DNA of 64,000 nucleotides from a virus. Shown piece by piece: positions 14,712 to 52,370 of the stretch (the first letter of the stretch is position 1; every line of letters begins with the position of its first letter). The stretch spans positions 64,001-128,000 of the IMG/VR virus record IMGVR_UViG_3300005805_000045. The stretch is one strand, 5' to 3'. A program made the position numbers and the translations under genes. The notes below the pieces were generated by a model that worked only from the letters and a program-made list of their open reading frames with translations, was not told where the DNA came from and searched no databases.

Positions 14712-17067
14712 AACGAATTTTCGTGACATACACGTTACCAGATGTATTGCCTGCATATGAAAGAGTTGCCACAAATGTTGCTGGTATTGAATTAGAACCG
14801 TTTGCAGTTACAGTAGGAACAGATGTATATCCTATGCCTGGTTCAGTGATATTGACAGATACTATTGAACCAGTTGCATTGACTGTGAACGATGCGTTTG
14901 CACCTTTGCCGTCTCCAGTAATAATTAAATAGCTATTTGCATTATACAATCTGCCAGCATTATTAATCGATATGCTCAAAACATTACTTTTTTGAACAAC
15001 GTAGAAATAATCACTAAAAGACTCTGTGATCATGTAGATGCTATTCTTAACGTTGGCATAATTACCACTTGTAAATTCAAGAAACACGTTGGCATTTACT
15101 GATAGTCCATGAGAATCGTATGATACGTTAATTGTGTTTCCTGTTTTTTCATACTCTCTTTCTGCAATAATGTAACTTGACGCATTAACATAACCAGCTT
15201 TATTAACGTTATAGATTGTGTTTGCATCTTCATTAGCAGAAACTTCGCTGGCTGTATTTTCATTAATATATTCATGCTCACCGAAAATTTTCAGTCCAGC
15301 TGGATGATTGATGTCTTTTACGGCTGTTCTATAATCAGCAATCGATTTGGTCGATTTCACAACATAAGAGAAGATTTGATAATAGTCTCTATCTTGAAGA
15401 AAATTATACGAGCTTAGATGTCCATCATCATTCAGATATCTACCTGGATATGAATATGCACCCTGAACGATGAATGGAGTGGCTTGTGCTCTTCCATCAC
15501 CACTACCAGTAAGATCAATTGTTGTATCAGGTGAATAACCACTGCCTCTATTTGAAATAGAAATTGATTGAATCGAACCAATAGATGATGTTAGTGACGT
15601 GAGATTTGCACCTGAACCTAGTATTGCTTTGACAACAATATTAGCACCATTACCTGTCGCAGAAATTACATTTGCTCTGGGTAAGAAGTTTTCATCAAAT
15701 CCTGATCCACCGACAAAGTGTCCATGAATTTGTTGGAATCTAACTTGACTGATTGCATTCGCATTTTGATTATCTACATTTGTGACATTTGCTACAGCAC
15801 CTGTGCCGTAACCACCAGTTACGTTGATAAACTCAATCACATCACCAATTTGATAATTCTGTCCGCCATTAGCAATTTCCATGGCACCAAGAATGCCCAA
15901 TCCAAATATGACTGTATTGGGCAGAATACTGATTGATGGTTTTGTTGTATAATTTGTTCCCGAATTGAGAATCAAAACTGATCTGGCAGGGCCTGTGTTG
16001 GCATAAACCCAATATGACATGCCGTTTGCAATCCATGAATTTACATTTGCTGAATTGAGATTGCTGTATACAGTATTATTGATTGGTGTATTAGCTTCAA
16101 GTGAGATTGTGCTTGCAACAATGTTATATGAATTAGGATGTACTGAACCATCAGCAACGACCGAAGTTACGTTAGCATTTGCACCAGCACCGCCACCGCC
16201 AGAAATCAATAAGAAATTTCCGTTTTGGAATCCAGCACCACCATATAGAACAGTGATGTCAGCAACGTTACCCGTTGAAACCGATGTTACAGTAGCACAA
16301 GCTCCTGTACCTGTATTACTAACAAATATAACTGGATCACCAACTGTGTAGTTTGATCCTGCATTTGTAATAGATACAGAACTAATAACGCCACCAAATA
16401 CATTTGATGTTAGTGGAAATGATCCTGAACTGTCTGAATAAAGGGCAAAAACAGTTTCGCCATCAGCAAATTCACCCTTTATGTTTGACAGAATGAGTTC
16501 ATCAATCTGTTGACCTTGTTCAAAATATCTGTCAACACGTTCGACAATGGCTGATGCTAGTGATGTATTACCGACTATCTGAGTTGATATAAATTTCTCA
16601 AGAGCAAAAATTGACGTGTTTGATGTTGAATTAAATTTGGTATCTGTAACACGCAATGATTTTTGAACAAACCATTTGCCATCAGATGCTCTGAGAATGT
16701 CTTTTTTAGGATAATAGAAATCAATTTCTTCGTTATACAAGATTCGAAAAAGAAATCTGGTAGCTTTTTCTGTACCTTTAGCTCTATAGAAATCTTTGAT
16801 ATTCTTGATAAGAATGTCTTTATCAGCCAGAGCAAAGTCTGGCAGAAAGTTCATAAAGATCGAATATAGCTTATTGGCATAATCATCTGGTGCCAAATCC
16901 ACATCAAAATGTGTTTGAATATTTTTGATTGTATTGACAGCTTTATCTTCTTGTTCTAGATACTCATAATATTTTTCAAGAAATGTTACGAATCCTTGAT
17001 GATCATTTCTGACAAAAAAAGGAACTTGAGAGTTTATGAGATGGCTGATTTTATTGTTTGATATCAT
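14707..17067 (-). CDS. gp7: Baseplate wedge initiator gp7-like
   Basis: FLEKYYEYLE, IKDFYRAKGT..FLFRILY, QDRDYYQIFSY, HPAGLKIFG; lies between gp6 and gp8. Confidence 0.8.
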   Translation of the reverse strand: MISNNKISHLINSQVPFFVRNDHQGFVTFLEKYYEYLEQEDKAVNTIKNIQTHFDVDLAPDDYANKLYSIFMNFLPDFALADKDILIKNIKDFYRAKGTEKATRFLFRILYNEEIDFYYPKKDILRASDGKWFVQKSLRVTDTKFNSTSNTSIFALEKFISTQIVGNTSLASAIVERVDRYFEQGQQIDELILSNIKGEFADGETVFALYSDSSGSFPLTSNVFGGVISSVSITNAGSNYTVGDPVIFVSNTGTGACATVTSVSTGNVADITVLYGGAGFQNGNFLLISGGGGAGANANVTSVVADGSVHPNSYNIVASTISLEANTPINNTVYSNLNSANVNSWIANGMSYWVYANTGPARSVLILNSGTNYTTKPSISILPNTVIFGLGILGAMEIANGGQNYQIGDVIEFINVTGGYGTGAVANVTNVDNQNANAISQVRFQQIHGHFVGGSGFDENFLPRANVISATGNGANIVVKAILGSGANLTSLTSSIGSIQSISISNRGSGYSPDTTIDLTGSGDGRAQATPFIVQGAYSYPGRYLNDDGHLSSYNFLQDRDYYQIFSYVVKSTKSIADYRTAVKDINHPAGLKIFGEHEYINENTASEVSANEDANTIYNVNKAGYVNASSYIIAEREYEKTGNTINVSYDSHGLSVNANVFLEFTSGNYANVKNSIYMITESFSDYFYVVQKSNVLSISINNAGRLYNANSYLIITGDGKGANASFTVNATGSIVSVNITEPGIGYTSVPTVTANGSNSIPATFVATLSYAGNTSGNVYVTKIRS

Positions 17068-34304: not shown

Positions 34305-34733
34305 TTAGAGTTGAATCACCTGACTATTGTTGCGTTTAGCTTCATCATAGTCATTTCTATCCACAGTGAGTGTGGAACATGACAATAATTCAAATTCTTT
34401 GAGTTTTTGGAGGACGATTCTCACGTCAAAGTTTTTACAAGAAAAGAGATCAAACTCTATGAGAGCAGGGTTGACCTCATCCCAAACGTGGATCGAGAGG
34501 TGGGAAAAATCTAGGATAGCCACCGCTGTATGGCCCTTGTTGCCTTCCATATCTGAATAGACAACGAGTGGACCACCGATGACCTTCATACCAACTTGAG
34601 TAATAACACTCTTACACCAATCTGCTAGAGAATCTGCTTCTCTAGGAGGATTTGCAACATAAGCACGAATGATGATGTGTTTATGGTCTCTAACAATTGG
34701 TTGTGTCATTTCTTTAAATCTGAATACCTCCAT
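34305..34733 (-). CDS. speD: Pyruvoyl-dependent S-adenosylmethionine decarboxylase family proenzyme
   Basis: HKHII, G.TAVAILDFSHLSIHVWDE, FDLFSCK.F. Confidence 0.8.
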   Translation of the reverse strand: MEVFRFKEMTQPIVRDHKHIIIRAYVANPPREADSLADWCKSVITQVGMKVIGGPLVVYSDMEGNKGHTAVAILDFSHLSIHVWDEVNPALIEFDLFSCKNFDVRIVLQKLKEFELLSCSTLTVDRNDYDEAKRNNSQVIQL

Positions 34734-35142: not shown

Positions 35143-35150
35143 TATTTATA
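35143..35150 (-). promoter_or_regulatory. Late promoter TATAAATA driving the tmRNA
   Basis: Perfect consensus directly upstream of the acceptor piece. Confidence 0.85.
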
Positions 35151-35843
35151 TCAGGAGTATTTCTTTTTGTCAAGATGGTAATCATAAATCTTCTGAAACA
35201 GATTCAACTCATAATCTTCTTTACGTTTGACGAAGACCTGTGGATCAGGTTCATTGTCCACGGAAATGATGATGACGATTTGATCGATGGGAATGCCAAC
35301 ACGTTCTTCATACATGAAACTGTATGCGGTTGTCTGTTCAAAATAGTTCTGGATGAACTTCTCAGGTTTGATTTTGGTTGAGGTCTTGAAGTCAATGACA
35401 CTCAGTTCCCCATCGAACTCACCAATCACGTCTGTTCGACCTGCTAGTCGCATCTTGGTCGAGTAAAGCGGACACTCGATATAATGGATGTTATCAATGC
35501 GATCAAGAGTTGGTCGCATGTCATAGAAAGCCTGACGCTGATCAGGCATCACGCCTTCGTGCAACACTTCTTTGATTGGTTTGTTTTCGAGATACCGTTC
35601 CATCATCGAATGGAACTTGGAGCCTCGAGTCGTCGCGCGATTGGTTATTCTGTTTGCTTCTTCATGTCCAACGCGACTTCTCCATTCTTCAATGCTCTTC
35701 TTTTTGAAATGACCAAGCACAGTTGTTACAGATGGAAATGATTCACCTGTTGGAATGATGTAGTGTCTCGCGCCGTTGACTTCCTTAGTTGAAAGTGGCT
35801 GGAGCTTTGGAACCCCAGCCACATAGTTGAATGTTTTTGTCAT
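35151..35843 (-). CDS. PD-(D/E)XK exonuclease (Cas4/lambda-exonuclease-like)
   Basis: PSVTTVL, RG..FH, AGRTD...VIDFKTS, Q..AY. Confidence 0.88.
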   Translation of the reverse strand: MTKTFNYVAGVPKLQPLSTKEVNGARHYIIPTGESFPSVTTVLGHFKKKSIEEWRSRVGHEEANRITNRATTRGSKFHSMMERYLENKPIKEVLHEGVMPDQRQAFYDMRPTLDRIDNIHYIECPLYSTKMRLAGRTDVIGEFDGELSVIDFKTSTKIKPEKFIQNYFEQTTAYSFMYEERVGIPIDQIVIIISVDNEPDPQVFVKRKEDYELNLFQKIYDYHLDKKKYS

Positions 35844-35846
35844 GCT

Positions 35847-36008
35847 CTATTTTAATTCACCTTTTTCCTTCATCATCTTGATGAACTCTTCCCGCATCTT
35901 CTTATACCAAGACAAGCTCTCGATCATGCTGTTGAACGATTGTGGTTTCCGTTCTGCTAGAAACTCGTCCAACGCCTTCTTGAACTCTTCACTTCCGATG
36001 GTCATCAT
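35847..36008 (-). CDS. 53-aa hypothetical protein
   Basis: MMTIGSEEFKKALDEFL...; fills the operon gap. Confidence 0.6.
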   Translation of the reverse strand: MMTIGSEEFKKALDEFLAERKPQSFNSMIESLSWYKKMREEFIKMMKEKGELK

Positions 36009-36012
36009 TTGT

Positions 36013-36540
36013 TCAGTCCTTTGGCATGAAGGTTATTCTTCGTCTCTTCTTTTCGGGTCTGCGTAGTTGATACTCTGTTTCGCCGTAAGGGTTTCTTGGT
36101 GCGCCTAAGTCTCCTTGACCATATCTCGTTGGACCATACTCGTCTTTCTCACCTTTACGCGCGGTGCCAGTGTAGATCGCAGTGCCTTTACCGTCGGGCG
36201 TTCTGTGGATGTAGGCGTCTTGGTCATACTTAGTAGACAGTTCGTGTACGTGCTTCAAAAGCTCTTTACCATGTTCATCACTCGTGCCTCGAGCAAAGAC
36301 GTGCAAAGAGTTTTCGCTGCCTACGCCGCCACCCTCATCCCACTTGCCCTTTGTCTTCCTGAAGCCGAACCCTCGATTCCTGAGTTCACCCTTCAGCTCC
36401 TTCATCCTAGCAGCATTCTCCTTGGGTGTCAAGTGCTTCCTTTCAGGTGAGAAGATGGCTGAATGACCCTTGAATGAAGCAACGCGAGACAGGGGATTAC
36501 CCTCTGTTAAGTATGTCCGTAGTTCTTTGAAAGTTTTCAT
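36013..36540 (-). CDS. T3-type SAM lyase (SAMase) homologue with capsid-targeting-like leader
   Basis: IFSPER..LT..EN..R..L...L; G.W.E....ENS; L..KYDQD pattern matches the T3 SAMase family; N-terminus MKTFKELRTYLTE. Confidence 0.65.
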   Translation of the reverse strand: MKTFKELRTYLTEGNPLSRVASFKGHSAIFSPERKHLTPKENAARMKELKGELRNRGFGFRKTKGKWDEGGGVGSENSLHVFARGTSDEHGKELLKHVHELSTKYDQDAYIHRTPDGKGTAIYTGTARKGEKDEYGPTRYGQGDLGAPRNPYGETEYQLRRPEKKRRRITFMPKD

Positions 36541-36547
36541 GGTTAAC

Positions 36548-37144
36548 CTATTTGAGTTCCTGTGTATCGTTTCTTAGTTTATCAAGTCTATTTAACCAAC
36601 CCTTGTGATACTTACCGTATTTATCTGGGTTACTGGTTGCCAAATGGTCATAATGATCTTTCCTGCCTTGAATCAGCTTGTCATAGTTGTCGCCATGCTC
36701 TTTAGCCAATTTTTGAGCGAAGCCTTTGCCTTGATTGATAGCAGCGTCTAGCACGACCGCGCGCGATCTGTGGCTTAGATGGTTGAGTTCACCCATACCC
36801 TCGAAGTAGTGCTTGCGATAAATCTCTTTGGCATCATCTTTGGTCAGGTTAGCGATGTCAACGTCTGGGTGAGCATTCTTGCTGATGCCATATCTCGTCA
36901 TGCCGCCAGTGTCGTGTGTTACTTTACCAGCAGGTCCTTCGTACTTGAATGTCCTGTGTGCAAAGCCTTCGAACTCTTTTTCACGATCTTCGTGCTTCTT
37001 GAGCAGTGCAGCAATGCTATCGGGCTTGCTCATTCTTCTGATCAAGCCACCGATGTGATCTTCTTTGCCTGCAGGAGCAGGATGAATGATTGCTGGTGGA
37101 GATTGTGCGGCGTCTTCTTCGATGAATTGTCTAAACGTCTTCAT
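36548..37144 (-). CDS. GH108 lysozyme (TtsA-like) with capsid-targeting-like leader
   Basis: YEG..DTGG.T.YGIS, LT.DDA..IY...Y, D.AINQG, KGWLNR; N-terminus MKTFRQFIEE. Confidence 0.85.
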   Translation of the reverse strand: MKTFRQFIEEDAAQSPPAIIHPAPAGKEDHIGGLIRRMSKPDSIAALLKKHEDREKEFEGFAHRTFKYEGPAGKVTHDTGGMTRYGISKNAHPDVDIANLTKDDAKEIYRKHYFEGMGELNHLSHRSRAVVLDAAINQGKGFAQKLAKEHGDNYDKLIQGRKDHYDHLATSNPDKYGKYHKGWLNRLDKLRNDTQELK

Positions 37145-37662
37145 TTGAACTTTCCGTCTAATATGTCCTCGATGGGAATTGGTTTGTAGTTAGTTCTCTC
37201 CACAGAAACATTCACATAGCCATCTTTGTCGATCTTCTTTTCGTGTATGTGACCATGAACGTTCAGCGAGGTTGGATACATGCTGAAGTCATTGATCGGG
37301 TAATGCGTGAACAACAAATCTCTCTTGAACATGCCTTTAGTAGCGAGTGATGCCCTGATGCTACTGAAGTATGGAATGAACCTCGCAGCATCGTAATCAT
37401 GATTGCCCATAATGAGCGTTTTGATCCCATTCAATCGTGCGAGCGTGACACCATAAAATTCTGGATGACCAAAGATAACATCACCGACGTGTATCACGGT
37501 GTCCTTTGGTTTGATGATCGAGTTCCAATTCTCAATCATCACTTCGTTCATGTGTGTCACGTCTTTGAAATCAGGCCTCATCAAACTTCCATCAATGCAC
37601 CTGAACGACAGAATATTCGCATGATTGAAGTGCGTATCAGATATAACGAAAACATCACCCAT
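37141..37662 (-). CDS. Calcineurin-like metallophosphoesterase
   Basis: SDTHF, HVGD, GNHD, THYP, HGHIH. Confidence 0.92.
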   Translation of the reverse strand: MGDVFVISDTHFNHANILSFRCIDGSLMRPDFKDVTHMNEVMIENWNSIIKPKDTVIHVGDVIFGHPEFYGVTLARLNGIKTLIMGNHDYDAARFIPYFSSIRASLATKGMFKRDLLFTHYPINDFSMYPTSLNVHGHIHEKKIDKDGYVNVSVERTNYKPIPIEDILDGKFK

Positions 37663-37666
37663 TCAT

Positions 37667-38812
37667 TCACTTCCTTGTTTTGGCCATAGCCCGCTGATTA
37701 TAAGAGTCCTTCATTGCAGCAATGTTATCCTTAGACAACGTTGGGTGATCAGGGAAATGGTGCTGCAATAGCTTGATGATTGGGTCTTTCTTGCCGTGAT
37801 CTGTCTCTCTGCCACCAGGAAGATCGTGTCTGGCCGCAACTTGTGACTCCTCGCCATAAAGCAAATGAGTGAAGCGATGGGCAAATTCATGCTGCTGTTC
37901 GGGAGTGCCGTGTGCCTTCACCGCAGCGATGGTTCCGTGAATCGAGCTGGTGTCTGTGCGCTTGGGGTTGAAGCCCTTGCCGAAGATCATCTTGCCGATG
38001 TTGTGTGGATGCAGTTCACGTTCAGCACCCTTTGATGGTAGCTCTTCGTGAATTGGCAACTTGCTTACTGGATCAACACGTCCTGTGTCTCGTGTCTTTG
38101 CTCTTGCTCCGGGAGCAACCTTGCCACCGATGCTGAGTGTTACACCAGACTCGCCTTGCTTGAGACCTCTCTTGCCCTGAATCATCACTGGCTTTCGCAT
38201 TGACGATGCAGCGGCTCTTAGTGCGACTTTTGATGCTAGTCCAGGAACAGAAGGATGTGACCCCGAGGGGAACATATCTCCCTTGGGTGTGTTCTTGTAC
38301 CACATCGCACCTTGATCAGGCTTGTTGTTCTTGTCGTGCTTCATTGGACTCAAATCAACCTGCGTGACTTGTCCAGTTTTCTTATGTTTCCAGAGAGTGA
38401 ACACACCACCTGGGTCATGTGGATCATCTGATCCTTTGACGTGAACTAGATCATGATGCTCTGTTGATAGCTTACCAACATGATCTTTGAGTGCATGAAG
38501 GTTCTTTAGTGTGTGCTCGTCATCTTTGACAACGTAATCAAGGTCACCAAACTTTTTCTTTCCCACTCTATGAAACTCAGAATCAGGAATTGAAGTATCA
38601 TGGAAATGCTCTGCTGATCCTACTGGAGAAACAGGTGTGCCCCCGAGATGTTGTGATAGCACACCCCTGATTGCATTCGCATGAGGCAGCATTTCTTTTC
38701 TTTGGTGGATTCCAGTAGGCGTGGAACTAACAGTGTTACCATGCTCGTCAGAGTATTGAAGATTGCCGCCTTCTTTGAGTAAGGAATACTGTCTGAAACT
38801 AAGCATGTCCAT
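37667..38812 (-). CDS. Pol-beta superfamily nucleotidyltransferase-like protein
   Basis: VGS..., FGDLD, QVDL catalytic pattern; N-terminus MLSFRQYSLLKE-GGN. Confidence 0.65.
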   Translation of the reverse strand: MDMLSFRQYSLLKEGGNLQYSDEHGNTVSSTPTGIHQRKEMLPHANAIRGVLSQHLGGTPVSPVGSAEHFHDTSIPDSEFHRVGKKKFGDLDYVVKDDEHTLKNLHALKDHVGKLSTEHHDLVHVKGSDDPHDPGGVFTLWKHKKTGQVTQVDLSPMKHDKNNKPDQGAMWYKNTPKGDMFPSGSHPSVPGLASKVALRAAASSMRKPVMIQGKRGLKQGESGVTLSIGGKVAPGARAKTRDTGRVDPVSKLPIHEELPSKGAERELHPHNIGKMIFGKGFNPKRTDTSSIHGTIAAVKAHGTPEQQHEFAHRFTHLLYGEESQVAARHDLPGGRETDHGKKDPIIKLLQHHFPDHPTLSKDNIAAMKDSYNQRAMAKTRK

Positions 38813-39875
38813 GCAGCCTTTCTAGTTGTGGAATCGTGTCTGTTCTAAGGCCACCGCGCTCTTCGATCTTCTTATTGAATCTGGAAACGACTTCATGGTA
38901 ATCTTCTGGGCTGACATGACCTTTCTTGACAGCGTTACTCATGGCTCTATGCATCTCGACCATAGACGAGTCCTCAGATAGCTTTGAACCTAAACGAGAC
39001 CCAAGCCACTCATGTTGTCTGGTGCCACCGTGGGCTGCTCTGTCTTCAGCAGATGTTTTGACGAGTCCATTTGGATGATCTTTGAAACGGGGGAACACAC
39101 GACCTTTGACGAGTGACAATTTCTTGGCACCGCCTGGTTCTTGGTTCTTTCCTGGCTTTCCTGTCTTCTCAGAAACCTCGAGCTTGTTTGCAGGATGTGC
39201 TCCGCCGAGTACAGAAACTGCGGCCTCTGCAAAGGCGTTTCTATGTGCGCCCTTGATCTTTTGATCCAAGTCTTCTCTGTGTGAACTGTTGGCAACGATG
39301 TGTGATGGGTCCATTTCTTCACCCTTGGGACCTTTGGGTGTATGCAATAGATCGATCTGCACAGGTGTCGTGTGACCTTCAGGATGATGGAAATGGAATA
39401 GAGCACTGGTAATACCAGAGCCATGTCGTGTCATGCTTTGTAGCGACATGTGACCAAATCGATTGTCCTTACCATCATTCTTGAACATGCCATGCAAATG
39501 GTTCTGAGACTCTTCGGTTGCGTGAGTATCAATATCGTTGAAATCTTGCTTACCCCATCTGGCCAAATCTTTTGGGGTAGTCTTCTTGTCCATGATGGGA
39601 CCAGTCGAGCCGCCATACTTGATGCCCTTTGAACCAAAGATATTGTGCCCAGCTCTCTCATGAAATCTCTTGCCGAACTCTTCCAGAGAACTATGAATTG
39701 CCTCTCTGTGGTCAGTGCTGATTGGCTCGCTTGCAACGTGACCTTCTCTGGCATCAGTCTTTGGCACAGGCAGAACTGGAATCGCTTTGCCCTTGGGTGT
39801 GGGAAGAAACATGTTCGTCCCGCCACCCTCTAGGAGAAAGTAGTTCTCGATTACAAACTGTTTGAAGGTTTTCAT
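38799..39875 (-). CDS. Pol-beta superfamily nucleotidyltransferase-like protein (paralogue)
   Basis: GGST..., FNDID, VQIDL; N-terminus MKTFKQFVIE..LLE-GGG. Confidence 0.65.
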   Translation of the reverse strand: MKTFKQFVIENYFLLEGGGTNMFLPTPKGKAIPVLPVPKTDAREGHVASEPISTDHREAIHSSLEEFGKRFHERAGHNIFGSKGIKYGGSTGPIMDKKTTPKDLARWGKQDFNDIDTHATEESQNHLHGMFKNDGKDNRFGHMSLQSMTRHGSGITSALFHFHHPEGHTTPVQIDLLHTPKGPKGEEMDPSHIVANSSHREDLDQKIKGAHRNAFAEAAVSVLGGAHPANKLEVSEKTGKPGKNQEPGGAKKLSLVKGRVFPRFKDHPNGLVKTSAEDRAAHGGTRQHEWLGSRLGSKLSEDSSMVEMHRAMSNAVKKGHVSPEDYHEVVSRFNKKIEERGGLRTDTIPQLERLHGHA

Positions 39876-40579
39876 AGTCCCATTTCCGTTCGTTTGATGA
39901 TGTAGTCTCGCACGAGACCTGACCGAACAATGTCCTGCTTCTCAAACTCGATGTAAGCGAACTTGTTCATACGTTTTGTGATATTTATAAAACTCATAAG
40001 GCCACTTTTGTCAGTCTCCTTCACTAGGTCAGTTTGTCGGAAGTCACCACAGAACATGATCTTGGAATAGTCGCCCATACGGGTCATGACTGTATCGAGT
40101 TCTGGGAACGTCATGTTCTGGAGTTCATCGACGATCACGACAGCATTGTTGAACGTGATACCACGAAGAAACGATGTGGTTGTGAAGTGAATGATGCCGC
40201 GCATTTTCAAAATGTCATAACCATCACCTCGACCAAAGAGTTCATCACAAATTTCCTTGTAGGGTTCTTCGTATACGCGAATCTTCTCTTTCACACTACC
40301 AGGAAGGAAACCAATGTCACGAGAAGGAACAACAGAGCGAACGATGATGACTTTATCATAGTTGCTTGATGATGACAGCACTTCATTTAACGCAAGATAC
40401 AAAGAAATGTAAGATTTACCAGTACCAGCATAACCATGAAGCATCAAATTAGAACCACGATTGTAGGCTTCGAAAGTCAGCTGTTGATTTGGTGTGAGTG
40501 GAGAAACTGTTCTGAGTTCGAAATGATTACGTTGCGCAGTCTGTTGATCTTGTTGCTTCTTGACTTTACGTTTTGACAT
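39872..40579 (-). CDS. phoH: PhoH-family ATPase
   Basis: GYAGTGKS, IGFLPG, FLRGITF, VDELQN, GDFRQTDL, DIVRSGLV; ATG 40579 has an AAGGAG RBS. Confidence 0.95.
   Translation of the reverse strand: MSKRKVKKQQDQQTAQRNHFELRTVSPLTPNQQLTFEAYNRGSNLMLHGYAGTGKSYISLYLALNEVLSSSSNYDKVIIVRSVVPSRDIGFLPGSVKEKIRVYEEPYKEICDELFGRGDGYDILKMRGIIHFTTTSFLRGITFNNAVVIVDELQNMTFPELDTVMTRMGDYSKIMFCGDFRQTDLVKETDKSGLMSFINITKRMNKFAYIEFEKQDIVRSGLVRDYIIKRTEMGL
39982..39989 (-). promoter_or_regulatory. Late promoter TATAAATA inside phoH, upstream of the NTase operon
   Basis: Perfect consensus about 107 nt upstream of ATG 39875. Confidence 0.7.
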
Positions 40580-40596
40580 AGTTTCTCCTTTATGCG

Positions 40597-40628
40597 AAAA
40601 AGGGACCTTCCTTAGAGAAAGGCCCCTT
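40597..40628 (-). terminator. Intrinsic terminator-like hairpin between the FmdB-like gene and phoH
   Basis: AAGGGGCCTTTC..GGAAGGTCCCTTTTT on the minus strand. Confidence 0.55.
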
Positions 40629-40670
40629 GCAATTTTCTTAAATTTAGGAATTGTCTTCTTACTCAACTGA

Positions 40671-40934: not shown

Positions 40935-40953
40935 AACTCCTTGTATATCATAT

Positions 40954-41499
40954 TTATATAACCTCGAGATTCATCCAGTCTGGTACACCTCGTTTTGTCC
41001 AAGTATGTAGATGAGTTTTACCTTGCTTGTAATAGTTGCGATAGTTGGTAATCGAGTCGGCTGAGATGATGTACTTAGCGTCCATTGCAGGGGTAACTGG
41101 TGTGAAGTAGCCAACTGGAATATTGTATGGTGGAATTTTTAGATACGACAACAGAAACGAACACTTGTGTGATTTGCCATACCGATAATTGTATTCATTC
41201 AACAGGCCACGAAGGTGTTCATACAGCCAGGTATAGTTGTTATTGCTTCTACGGCACCACACGGCACTCGGATGATTGATATGTGTTGCTGAATAGATGT
41301 TCGTTTCACGATCATCATCGAGTTTCCATCGTTTGACTTTGCGACCAGTTTTTGATTGTCCAATATACTCTTGACCATCGAGAAGCCGATGTGCTGTTGA
41401 CAGCAACTGACACGTCTCGAGGATCATTTTGACCACATGCTTGTCAACCATCATCTGGGCTGCAATGTATGGATCTTTGTCGAGATAGAAGATGTTCAT
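40954..41499 (-). CDS. Pyrimidine-dimer DNA glycosylase / endonuclease V-like
   Basis: MNIFYLD.DP..AA....DKHVVKMILE..QLLSTAH, HINHPS.VW, YRNYY. Confidence 0.85.
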   Translation of the reverse strand: MNIFYLDKDPYIAAQMMVDKHVVKMILETCQLLSTAHRLLDGQEYIGQSKTGRKVKRWKLDDDRETNIYSATHINHPSAVWCRRSNNNYTWLYEHLRGLLNEYNYRYGKSHKCSFLLSYLKIPPYNIPVGYFTPVTPAMDAKYIISADSITNYRNYYKQGKTHLHTWTKRGVPDWMNLEVI

Positions 41500-51649: not shown

Positions 51650-52183
51650 TTATACTCCGAATTTATGAATCTTGAATTTCTTATCACCTTCTTCTACTGT
51701 TTTAGCACCAAGATGTTTCAAATTTTGATTTCTAGCAATCAAAACTTCATTTTCGTGGCCACCAAGATGAACGGCTAAAGAGTTTTCTGGCAACTCAATA
51801 TGTGCGATATGATGATAACCGTCTTCAGATTTTACAGAATAACCTTTAGCAGAATCTTTGTGTGGTGAAGAAGAAATATATGTAGGAGTTCTACCATTCT
51901 CAATAAGAGATTTGTGCGCATTTCTGCCTAGAGCAGAATACACATTTAGTTTTTTTGGTATTTTATTATTCTCAATAAACCTGTCAATGTGTTCTACATC
52001 TGAATGATTTTTTCCAGATAATAGAGCATCATTGACAGGCTTGCTATTTTTAATATATCTTTTGATTTCTTTCGTATGCTTCGGTGCACCCAGTTGAACA
52101 TCAAGTGATTTGCGTCTTTCCAAATGTTTATTGTCATCGGCAGCAAACCAATTTTCGTACAAAAAAGCCTTGAACCCAAGCAT
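51650..52183 (-). CDS. Alt/Mod-like ADP-ribosyltransferase with capsid-targeting-like leader
   Basis: Y...S..VN..L, VYS, YISSS, ENEVL (ExE); N-terminus MLGFKAFLYE; AATAAATA late promoter at about 52209-52216. Confidence 0.7.
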   Translation of the reverse strand: MLGFKAFLYENWFAADDNKHLERRKSLDVQLGAPKHTKEIKRYIKNSKPVNDALLSGKNHSDVEHIDRFIENNKIPKKLNVYSALGRNAHKSLIENGRTPTYISSSPHKDSAKGYSVKSEDGYHHIAHIELPENSLAVHLGGHENEVLIARNQNLKHLGAKTVEEGDKKFKIHKFGV

Positions 52184-52211
52184 CGAAATAATCCTTTAGT
52201 TTTGAAAGTAT

Positions 52212-52370
52212 TTATTCTTCCAAATCTTCCTCAACATATTCTTCTGTATTCACTTCCGCAGAGCAGAAAGGACAAAATTTCACGAATCCAGAAGTTTCAC
52301 TCAGATCATAAACGATTCTATATGTAGATTCACATTCGTGGCAAATTTTATTTTCAACTTCTTTTGACAT
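52212..52370 (-). CDS. 52-aa zinc-ribbon protein (CHEC..CPFC)
   Basis: Small gene typically found downstream of nrd genes in T4-like phages. Confidence 0.7.
   Translation of the reverse strand: MSKEVENKICHECESTYRIVYDLSETSGFVKFCPFCSAEVNTEEYVEEDLEE

Follow-up and report, generated by a model that had tools for sequence, protein, structure and literature searches.

A stretch of 64,000 nucleotides, hereafter the window, comprises bases 64001-128000 of a 163,885-bp viral record (IMG/VR IMGVR_UViG_3300005805_000045) with direct terminal repeats and a G+C content of 39.5%. Its minus strand carries a compact block of five genes, four of which encode proteins that begin with a short leader resembling the capsid targeting sequence (CTS) of bacteriophage T4. 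By analogy with T4, this block probably belongs to a set of internal proteins that would be targeted to the phage head and trimmed there by the prohead protease, with enzymes as the cargo; we put the probability of this reading at roughly 0.7. Judged by the capsid protein, the nearest cultured relatives are Pelagibacter phage Mosig (67%), Methylophilales phage Melnitz (65%) and marine cyanophages, which identifies the genome as that of an uncultured marine T4-like phage; the capsid protein is ~65% identical to those of the cultured marine T4-likes, whereas the T-even phages are far off. A gp21 prohead protease (PF03420, E 3e-38), gp23, a gp22 scaffold (PF25623) and a gp67-like core/prohead protein are all encoded in the genome.

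The block begins with two putative nucleotidyltransferases (NTases). P1 (358 residues, 38799-39875) starts MKTFKQFVIE and its leader MKTFKQFVIENYFLLE is followed by an invariant GGG; P2 (379 residues, 37667-38806) has the leader MLSFRQYSLLKE, then GGN. The P2 open reading frame (ORF) could open two codons earlier as MDM, and its orthologues begin MLSF. Next come a metallophosphoesterase with no leader (37141-37662), a GH108 muramidase domain protein with the leader MKTFRQFIEE (36548-37144) and a 175-residue S-adenosylmethionine (SAM)-lyase-family protein (36013-36540), in which the leader MKTFKELRTYLTE precedes an invariant GNPL. A further tagged protein, a 177-residue ADP-ribosyltransferase (ART) with the leader MLGFKAFLYE, is encoded at 51650-52183. 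The ORFs and N-termini of the block and the ART are exactly those quoted in the initial annotation, all on the minus strand. Its description of the genes as capsid-tagged enzymes suits four of the five block genes and the ART, but not the metallophosphoesterase, which is untagged and not basic.

Leader peptides resembling the T4 capsid targeting sequence

The T4 CTS reads MKTYQEFIAE (PMC8442874), and amber-suppressor experiments in T4 assign residues 4 and 7 mainly to targeting and residues 8 and 10 to processing (PMC9026906). The leaders described here are 10-16 residues long. Those of P1, the GH108 protein, the ART and a 544-residue protein encoded outside the window fit the T4 rule exactly: positions 4 and 7 are aromatic, position 8 is aliphatic and position 10 is Glu. 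Those of P2, the SAM-lyase-family protein and a DUF7178 protein, also from outside the window, have the same start and 2-3 extra residues before L-x-E. All of these have F4, and position 7 is F or Y in each except the SAM-lyase-family protein, where it is L. The leaders close with predicted gp21 sites of the form [LIV]-x-E (VIE/LLE, LKE, IEE, LTE and LYE), and the Glu at the leader/body junction is invariant in alignments of the P1 (A1) and P2 (A4) families and replaced by Asp in one member of the SAM-lyase-family alignment (A2). When a strict rule (M-x2-[FY]-x2-[FY]-[ILVM]-x-E) was tested on the 674 first-ATG ORFs of the genome, four N-termini matched against ~0.07 expected from the rate at internal positions (1.0e-4 per residue).

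The bodies behind these leaders represent five families or folds, unrelated except for the P1-P2 pair. Without the leader, all eight tagged proteins are basic, with isoelectric points (pI) of 9.0-9.85 against a background median of 6.95 and 29% of the background above 9; T4 internal proteins are likewise highly basic (PMC8442874). P1 and P2 are also rich in histidine (27 and 30 His, 7-8%), as are the other tagged proteins.

The set of tagged proteins originally listed is present but too small, as the genome beyond the window adds an Alt-like ART and three or four more leader tags, the latter in or near the head module. These are carried by the 544-residue protein, which has a HEAT-repeat match (genome 28844-30478), the 292-residue DUF7178 protein (genome 31000-31878) and a 636-residue leader-type protein between the portal and gp67-like genes that starts MKTVKQIIE (genome 37341-39251). 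A 74-residue protein starting MKTFKQFLNK, without the Glu (genome 46152-46376), may from its sequence be something other than a leader protein. The Alt-like ART (285 residues; genome 39436-40293, L146:12436-13293; minus strand; PF03496, E 1e-14) directly follows the portal gene and is acidic (pI 5.2). In place of an MKTF-type leader it has an I-N-E site at residues 4-6, recalling the 7-residue propeptide that is removed from T4 Alt (PMC9026906).

If the analogy with T4 holds, the leader would dock each new protein onto the scaffolding core (gp22 and the gp67-like protein) during prohead formation, and gp21 would then cut after the Glu of the [LIV]-x-E site. The basic mature enzyme would stay in the head with the DNA and exit through the tail at infection.

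The leaders vary in their synonymous codons but keep their residues, which argues that selection acts on the peptide. A feature of the nucleotide sequence, such as a translation-initiation region or a recombination cassette for gene shuffling with no peptide role, is therefore a very improbable explanation of the shared starts: it would suit the hypervariable internal-protein loci of T-even phages, the documented modular shuffling of T4-type genomes (PMC2839356) and the slots flanking P1-P2 that vary between relatives, but it would not keep residues where synonymous codons are free to differ, nor conserve Glu 9/10 and the [LIV]-x-E junctions as protein features.

Across homologues the leader appears as a detachable module. 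In the P1 family, leader and invariant E-GGG succeed one another in 9/9 members (A1). P2 homologues were collected by a full scan of 1.8 billion representatives, and the distant relatives are of two kinds, with a leader ending ...E|GGN or with a start directly at MGGN; in one of the latter a stop codon stands immediately before the ATG. Natural leaderless forms thus begin at the predicted cut. In the SAM-lyase family the body GNPL always follows [LIM]-x-E (with the single Asp exception), the leader abutting the body in short forms and 50-130 variable residues preceding a second site in long forms. The leader and a spacer of ~55 residues are present in only the four closest homologues of the GH108 protein (alignment A3); in ten more distant homologues the catalytic domain comes first, and the majority of these retain a peptidoglycan-binding domain that has been lost from the tagged forms. 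Alignments of the DUF7178 protein with its homologues in unrelated phages start only at residue 33. Consistent with a separable leader, residues 1-12 of the P2 model are disordered, with a predicted local distance difference test score (pLDDT) of 34 for the leader and 90 for the whole model. The proposal that the leaders are a modular T4-type targeting and cleavage signal on unrelated enzymes is well supported by this comparative evidence.

The set is thus like the T4 internal proteins in its N-terminal ten-residue leader (aromatic 4/7, aliphatic 8, Glu 10), in its unrelated, basic, non-essential-looking bodies, in the presence of gp21, gp22 and gp67 in the genome and in loci that vary among relatives. 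It differs in the 2-6 extra residues that some leaders have before the Glu and in the long pro-regions, each with a second cut site, that homologues may contain. The contents differ too: the three internal proteins of T4 are small, lack an enzymatic fold and inhibit GmrSD-type restriction enzymes, whereas here the bodies are enzymes of 160-630 residues. T4 Alt, a head-carried, gp21-processed and injected ADP-ribosyltransferase, has possible counterparts in the Alt-like ART beside the portal gene and in the window ART. The latter is sized like T4 ModA and ModB but carries a full CTS-type leader; ModA and ModB are not packaged.

Predicted enzymatic cargo and its possible roles

P1 and P2 have no match in Pfam or PHROGs. 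The P1 family profile found no sequence match among solved structures, an Atlas feature search with P1 returned weak leads only, all below 0.9, and tblastn with P2 in 50,697 phage records gave no match. BLASTP did not detect kinship between the two, but profile-profile alignment of their families (hhalign of A1 against A4) gave a probability of 99.1% with E 1e-18 over 305 columns, and by this comparison they are distant paralogues. Invariant positions in P1 are GGS88-90, D114, D116 and D175 (A1); in P2, GS63-64 is near-invariant (at least 90%) and D88, D90 and D151 are invariant (A4). Structural searches with the P2 model (Foldseek, VIA-align) placed almost exclusively NTases in the top rows, with Z up to 8.0; family-X DNA polymerases aligned over ~150-180 residues (Z 6.6-7.6) and terminal uridylyl/adenylyl transferases over ~100 residues (Z up to 8.0). 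The P1 model is weaker (pLDDT 62) and yields the same family list, almost all NTases with Z up to 6.5. Neighbours in Atlas and BFVD at template modelling (TM) scores of 0.61-0.77 are viral, mostly unnamed proteins, and Atlas clusters at TM 0.75-0.77 are viral without exception; weaker neighbours include a cluster that fuses a similar fold to a PD-(D/E)XK nuclease and a 1096-residue phage protein named ParB/Sulfiredoxin (BFVD).

The invariant motif, the fold matches and the viral neighbours together indicate that P1 and P2 are real nucleotidyltransferase folds of a phage-specific family. The NTase labels given initially therefore stand on the fold, the invariant G-S...D-x-D...D motif and the profile-profile homology of the pair, but find no support in Pfam. 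The palm fold and the motif are common to family X polymerases and terminal NTases (Pol beta/lambda/mu, terminal deoxynucleotidyltransferase, African swine fever virus Pol X and terminal uridylyltransferases). In contrast to family X, P1 and P2 lack a Pfam match as well as the 8-kDa and fingers domains, and they contain large insertions and a helical C-terminal domain. Residues 203-357 of the P1 model also show a weak match (Z 4.5) to cyanophage A4 pre-ejectosome chain 9k3a_B, which at this score is probably without meaning.

The family assignments of the phosphoesterase and the GH108 protein are solid. The former matches PF00149 with 33 bits against a cut-off of 21.5, as well as PF12850 and phrog_547 (E 1e-45), and its DxH, GD, GNHD and GHxH motifs are readable in the translation. 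The latter matches PF05838 with 52 bits against a cut-off of 21.2 (E 1e-13), E69 and D78 are invariant in A3, and the Glu of the E-G-G motif is conserved; the usual partner domain PG_binding_3 is missing. The T4-type lysozyme domain PF00959 is absent genome-wide, so that an e-type lysozyme and a gp5 lysozyme domain belonging to that family are both lacking; the tagged GH108 protein represents the sole muramidase family detected, in a search that did not extend to other lytic families.

These enzymes could also be read as ordinary intracellular proteins, namely a DNA-end repair or nucleotide module plus an endolysin, whose N-termini would serve some use other than packaging, for example protease-controlled activation or stability. 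The NTase fold is nearest to family-X polymerases, the Atlas cluster mentioned above joins a similar fold to a PD-(D/E)XK nuclease while an exonuclease and a phosphoesterase are encoded nearby here, and the one muramidase family detected occupies the site of a leaderless GH108 in Mosig, all of which would fit such a module. Left unexplained would be the match to the T4 signal at all four functional positions, the confinement of the tag to relatives with gp21, the basicity of the tagged proteins alone and the leaderless homologues that start exactly at the predicted cut. Moreover, GH108 is missing from two complete related genomes and is thus not a core lysis gene. On this evidence a purely intracellular role seems improbable, and targeting to the head is preferred.

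The SAM-lyase-family protein belongs to a family in which 16/16 members match PF23780 (best E 2.8e-11), a likeness to the T3 SAMase and Svi3-3 SAM lyases (PMC8406200); tblastn with this protein in 50,697 phage records gave no match. The predicted effect would be a loss of SAM-dependent restriction or of bacteriophage exclusion (BREX). T3 SAMase is the first early protein made by T3, whereas the protein considered here would arrive ready-made. A speD SAM decarboxylase gene (PF02675) lies at 34305-34733, ~1.3 kb downstream of the SAM-lyase-family gene, giving the phage two predicted SAM-consuming enzymes. The window ART matches PF03496 with 24.4 bits against a cut-off of 23.4, over part of the model only; phmmer against solved structures found no match for it. 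Its mature form has a pI of 9.5.

After delivery, the SAM-lyase-family protein would dampen host defence by SAM-dependent restriction or BREX, and the ART would modify host proteins in the manner of Alt. An anti-defence role is plausible for these two. For the GH108 protein it is doubtful; this protein may instead serve in cell-wall passage or be a retargeted endolysin. A bolder proposal is that this lineage uses the T4 tag as a general delivery route, by which a SAM lyase, an ART, a cell-wall hydrolase and two Pol-X-like NTases are co-injected and act before any phage gene is expressed, the NTases forming a new class of injected effector that works on incoming DNA ends or host RNA. We regard this as tentative, possible but on balance not expected.

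Precedents for capsid-loaded enzymes that travel with the DNA, often after trimming by the head protease, are the polyvalent proteins (PMC5512222), Dar of phage P1 (PMC12810830) and the SPN3US/phiKZ ejection proteins cut by gp21-like proteases (PMC5694885, PMC7411985). Those proteins are usually giant and multidomain or use other routes of incorporation, whereas here single-enzyme genes each have their own short tag. Injected enzymes are thus already known, as Alt and the polyvalent proteins (PMC5512222) exemplify, and reviewers have proposed that the T4 mechanism lets T4-like phages load varied proteins (PMC9026906). The literature searched holds no description of the tag outside T-even phages or on these enzyme classes; the mechanism would be the known T4 one, and the classes of cargo appear new in that literature. 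Three small inhibitors of restriction enzymes are the proteins on which T4 is known to carry this tag, and Alt is its known case of enzyme delivery. If the tag does deliver enzymes here, counter-defence and host take-over could begin at DNA entry with catalytic rather than stoichiometric doses, and a ten-residue motif would allow the "injected proteome" of abundant ocean T4-like phages to be read from sequence alone. It would also suggest candidate functions for a phage-specific nucleotidyltransferase family that is unannotated, and supply natural examples for T4-based protein-delivery engineering.

Gene neighbourhood and late-promoter-like boxes

The tight packing reported for the five genes, with overlaps or gaps of at most 8 nt, is present and extends in both directions, from phoH (39872-40666, minus strand; PF02562, E 3e-44) to a PD-(D/E)XK exonuclease that ends the packed block (35151-35843, minus strand; PF12705; phrog_298, E 2e-72). 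The sequence shows the TGA of phoH overlapping the ATG of P1 as ATGA. Between the SAM-lyase-family and exonuclease genes, and equally tightly packed, lies a 53-residue ORF with no leader (35847-36008, minus strand) that has no family match in Pfam or PHROGs.

A late promoter had been claimed at 39982-39989, inside phoH, and TATAAATA is indeed present there on the minus strand (codons F-I-N-I), 106 nt before the P1 ATG. The same late-promoter-like box occurs at 40951-40958 on the minus strand, 16 nt before an 87-residue ORF that precedes phoH, and at 35143-35150, directly after the exonuclease gene; a variant, AATAAATA, lies at 52209-52216 on the minus strand, 25 nt before the start of the ART and thus at -33. 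Genome-wide there are 21 copies of TATAAATA, of which 18 lie on the coding strand and one stands 33 nt before gp23, which makes it a credible late box. The phoH-internal copy is kept in relatives L011/L012. A divergent relative (L013/L014) lacks phoH upstream of the cluster, where a terminator-like hairpin and TATAAATA stand instead; the first gene of this cluster, read from a TTG start, begins (M)HSFKYFVENFLTE.

Late expression of the block is likely, as judged from these boxes. The term "late operon" holds in part: TATAAATA or AATAAATA lies upstream of the tagged genes, but the box nearest P1 falls within phoH codons, P1 is joined to phoH by the ATGA overlap and a second TATAAATA lies upstream of phoH. 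The translational coupling and the second box suggest that the unit is probably longer than five genes. Scans for sigma-70 promoters and terminators gave results at or below shuffle expectation and were not used.

Distribution among relatives and the weight of the evidence

A codon-pattern scan of IMG/VR for MKTFKQF, which left Glu at positions 9/10 unconstrained, found at least 120 loci. Among the matches listed, 112/120 are true N-termini, 78 of them non-redundant, and Glu stands at position 9 or 10 in 70/78, with the aliphatic-8/Glu-10 form in 35/78. In the same matches, 108/120 loci have other genes in common with this phage when the leaders are masked, and the complete records with genuine leaders encode gp21. 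Two matches in complete 52-53-kb genomes without gp21 were set aside as chance, one being a hydrophobic peptide and the other an internal, non-N-terminal match. Cytidylyltransferase-like proteins, another SAM lyase (E 6e-16) and a glucosaminidase occur as cargo among the matches listed; the leader of the glucosaminidase has the same FIAE ending as that of T4. A second complete relative, of 168.5 kb, encodes four strict-rule proteins with different bodies.

The cargo proteins among the matches listed range from 45 to 641 residues, and many have only 45-100. These small proteins are among the reasons to consider that the tagged products enter the prohead core but serve there as scaffold or as filler that condenses the DNA, or undergo degradation and expulsion, in which case they would not be delivered effectors and their enzymatic activity would be irrelevant to infection. 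Most T4 core proteins are indeed cut up and leave the head (PMC9026906), and the basic charge of all the tagged proteins fits association with DNA. The catalytic residues, on the other hand, are invariant in distant homologues (D88, D90 and D151 of P2; E69 and D78 of the GH108 protein), which would be unexpected for filler, and in T4 both Alt and the internal proteins leave the particle by ejection to act inside the host (PMC9026906, PMC12373910). Filler is thus unlikely, and delivery of trimmed enzymes remains the preferred reading.

The P1-P2 pair is conserved in 5/5 lineages recovered, usually with the phosphoesterase following it, and the slots flanking the pair vary among relatives. In an 80%-identical relative a 100-residue ORF (L008:12734-13036) takes the place of the GH108 and SAM-lyase-family genes; in another, the place of the same two genes, between phosphoesterase and exonuclease, is taken by a 51-residue ORF (L011:10086-10241). 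In the latter, the leader MKTFKAFVKE is joined to a basic module (roughly DPMIKFRKRVDAKRLPTRSGSKG) and a Gly/Asp tail. The same module recurs as the pro-region in several long homologues of the SAM-lyase family and at the C-terminus of the 100-residue ORF. It may represent what is left of a deleted cargo gene, or else a second element for binding to the head. Further tagged proteins, of 288 and ~478 residues, are inserted upstream of P1. Such variable slots mirror the internal-protein loci of T-even phages, which are hypervariable (PMC12373910).

Several results weigh against the proposal that the block encodes head-targeted enzymes expressed late. The metallophosphoesterase, in the middle of the block, has no leader and a pI of 6.5. 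The SAM-lyase-family protein itself scores 26 bits against the PF23780 cut-off of 28, and its family profile, compared with solved structures, recovered no SAM lyase and one chance-level match to a lectin. In the window ART the SSS and E-N-E motifs are visible and the catalytic Arg is not clearly placed. As to timing, the TATAAATA inside phoH is confounded by conserved coding sequence and differs in one relative (L008), where it reads CATAAATA, and read-through into the block from earlier promoters is possible, given the ATGA coupling to phoH. Lastly, Mosig, the nearest cultured relative by capsid protein, has no such leaders, and its leaderless GH108 occupies a syntenic position beside a PD-(D/E)XK nuclease; the tagged GH108 may therefore descend from an ordinary endolysin. 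The lack of leaders in Mosig indicates that the leader system is specific to some lineages.

In the 80%-identical relative, a 198-residue gene with a Pfam match to Gad2 (anti-Gabija) lies between the transcription co-activator and gp59 genes (L003-L010, ~15862-16458); the corresponding slot is empty in the window. The commonest MKTFKQF protein among the matches listed is a 51-residue family beginning MKTFKQFQEEWSNKYKKSIDCSNPKGF (L024, L031, L034, L038 and ~25 others), of which this genome has no copy. At L057:4567-5838, MKTFKQF begins a 424-residue HK97-type capsid-family protein (PF05065, E 3e-24), so a similar N-terminus can also sit on a capsid protein's own propeptide.

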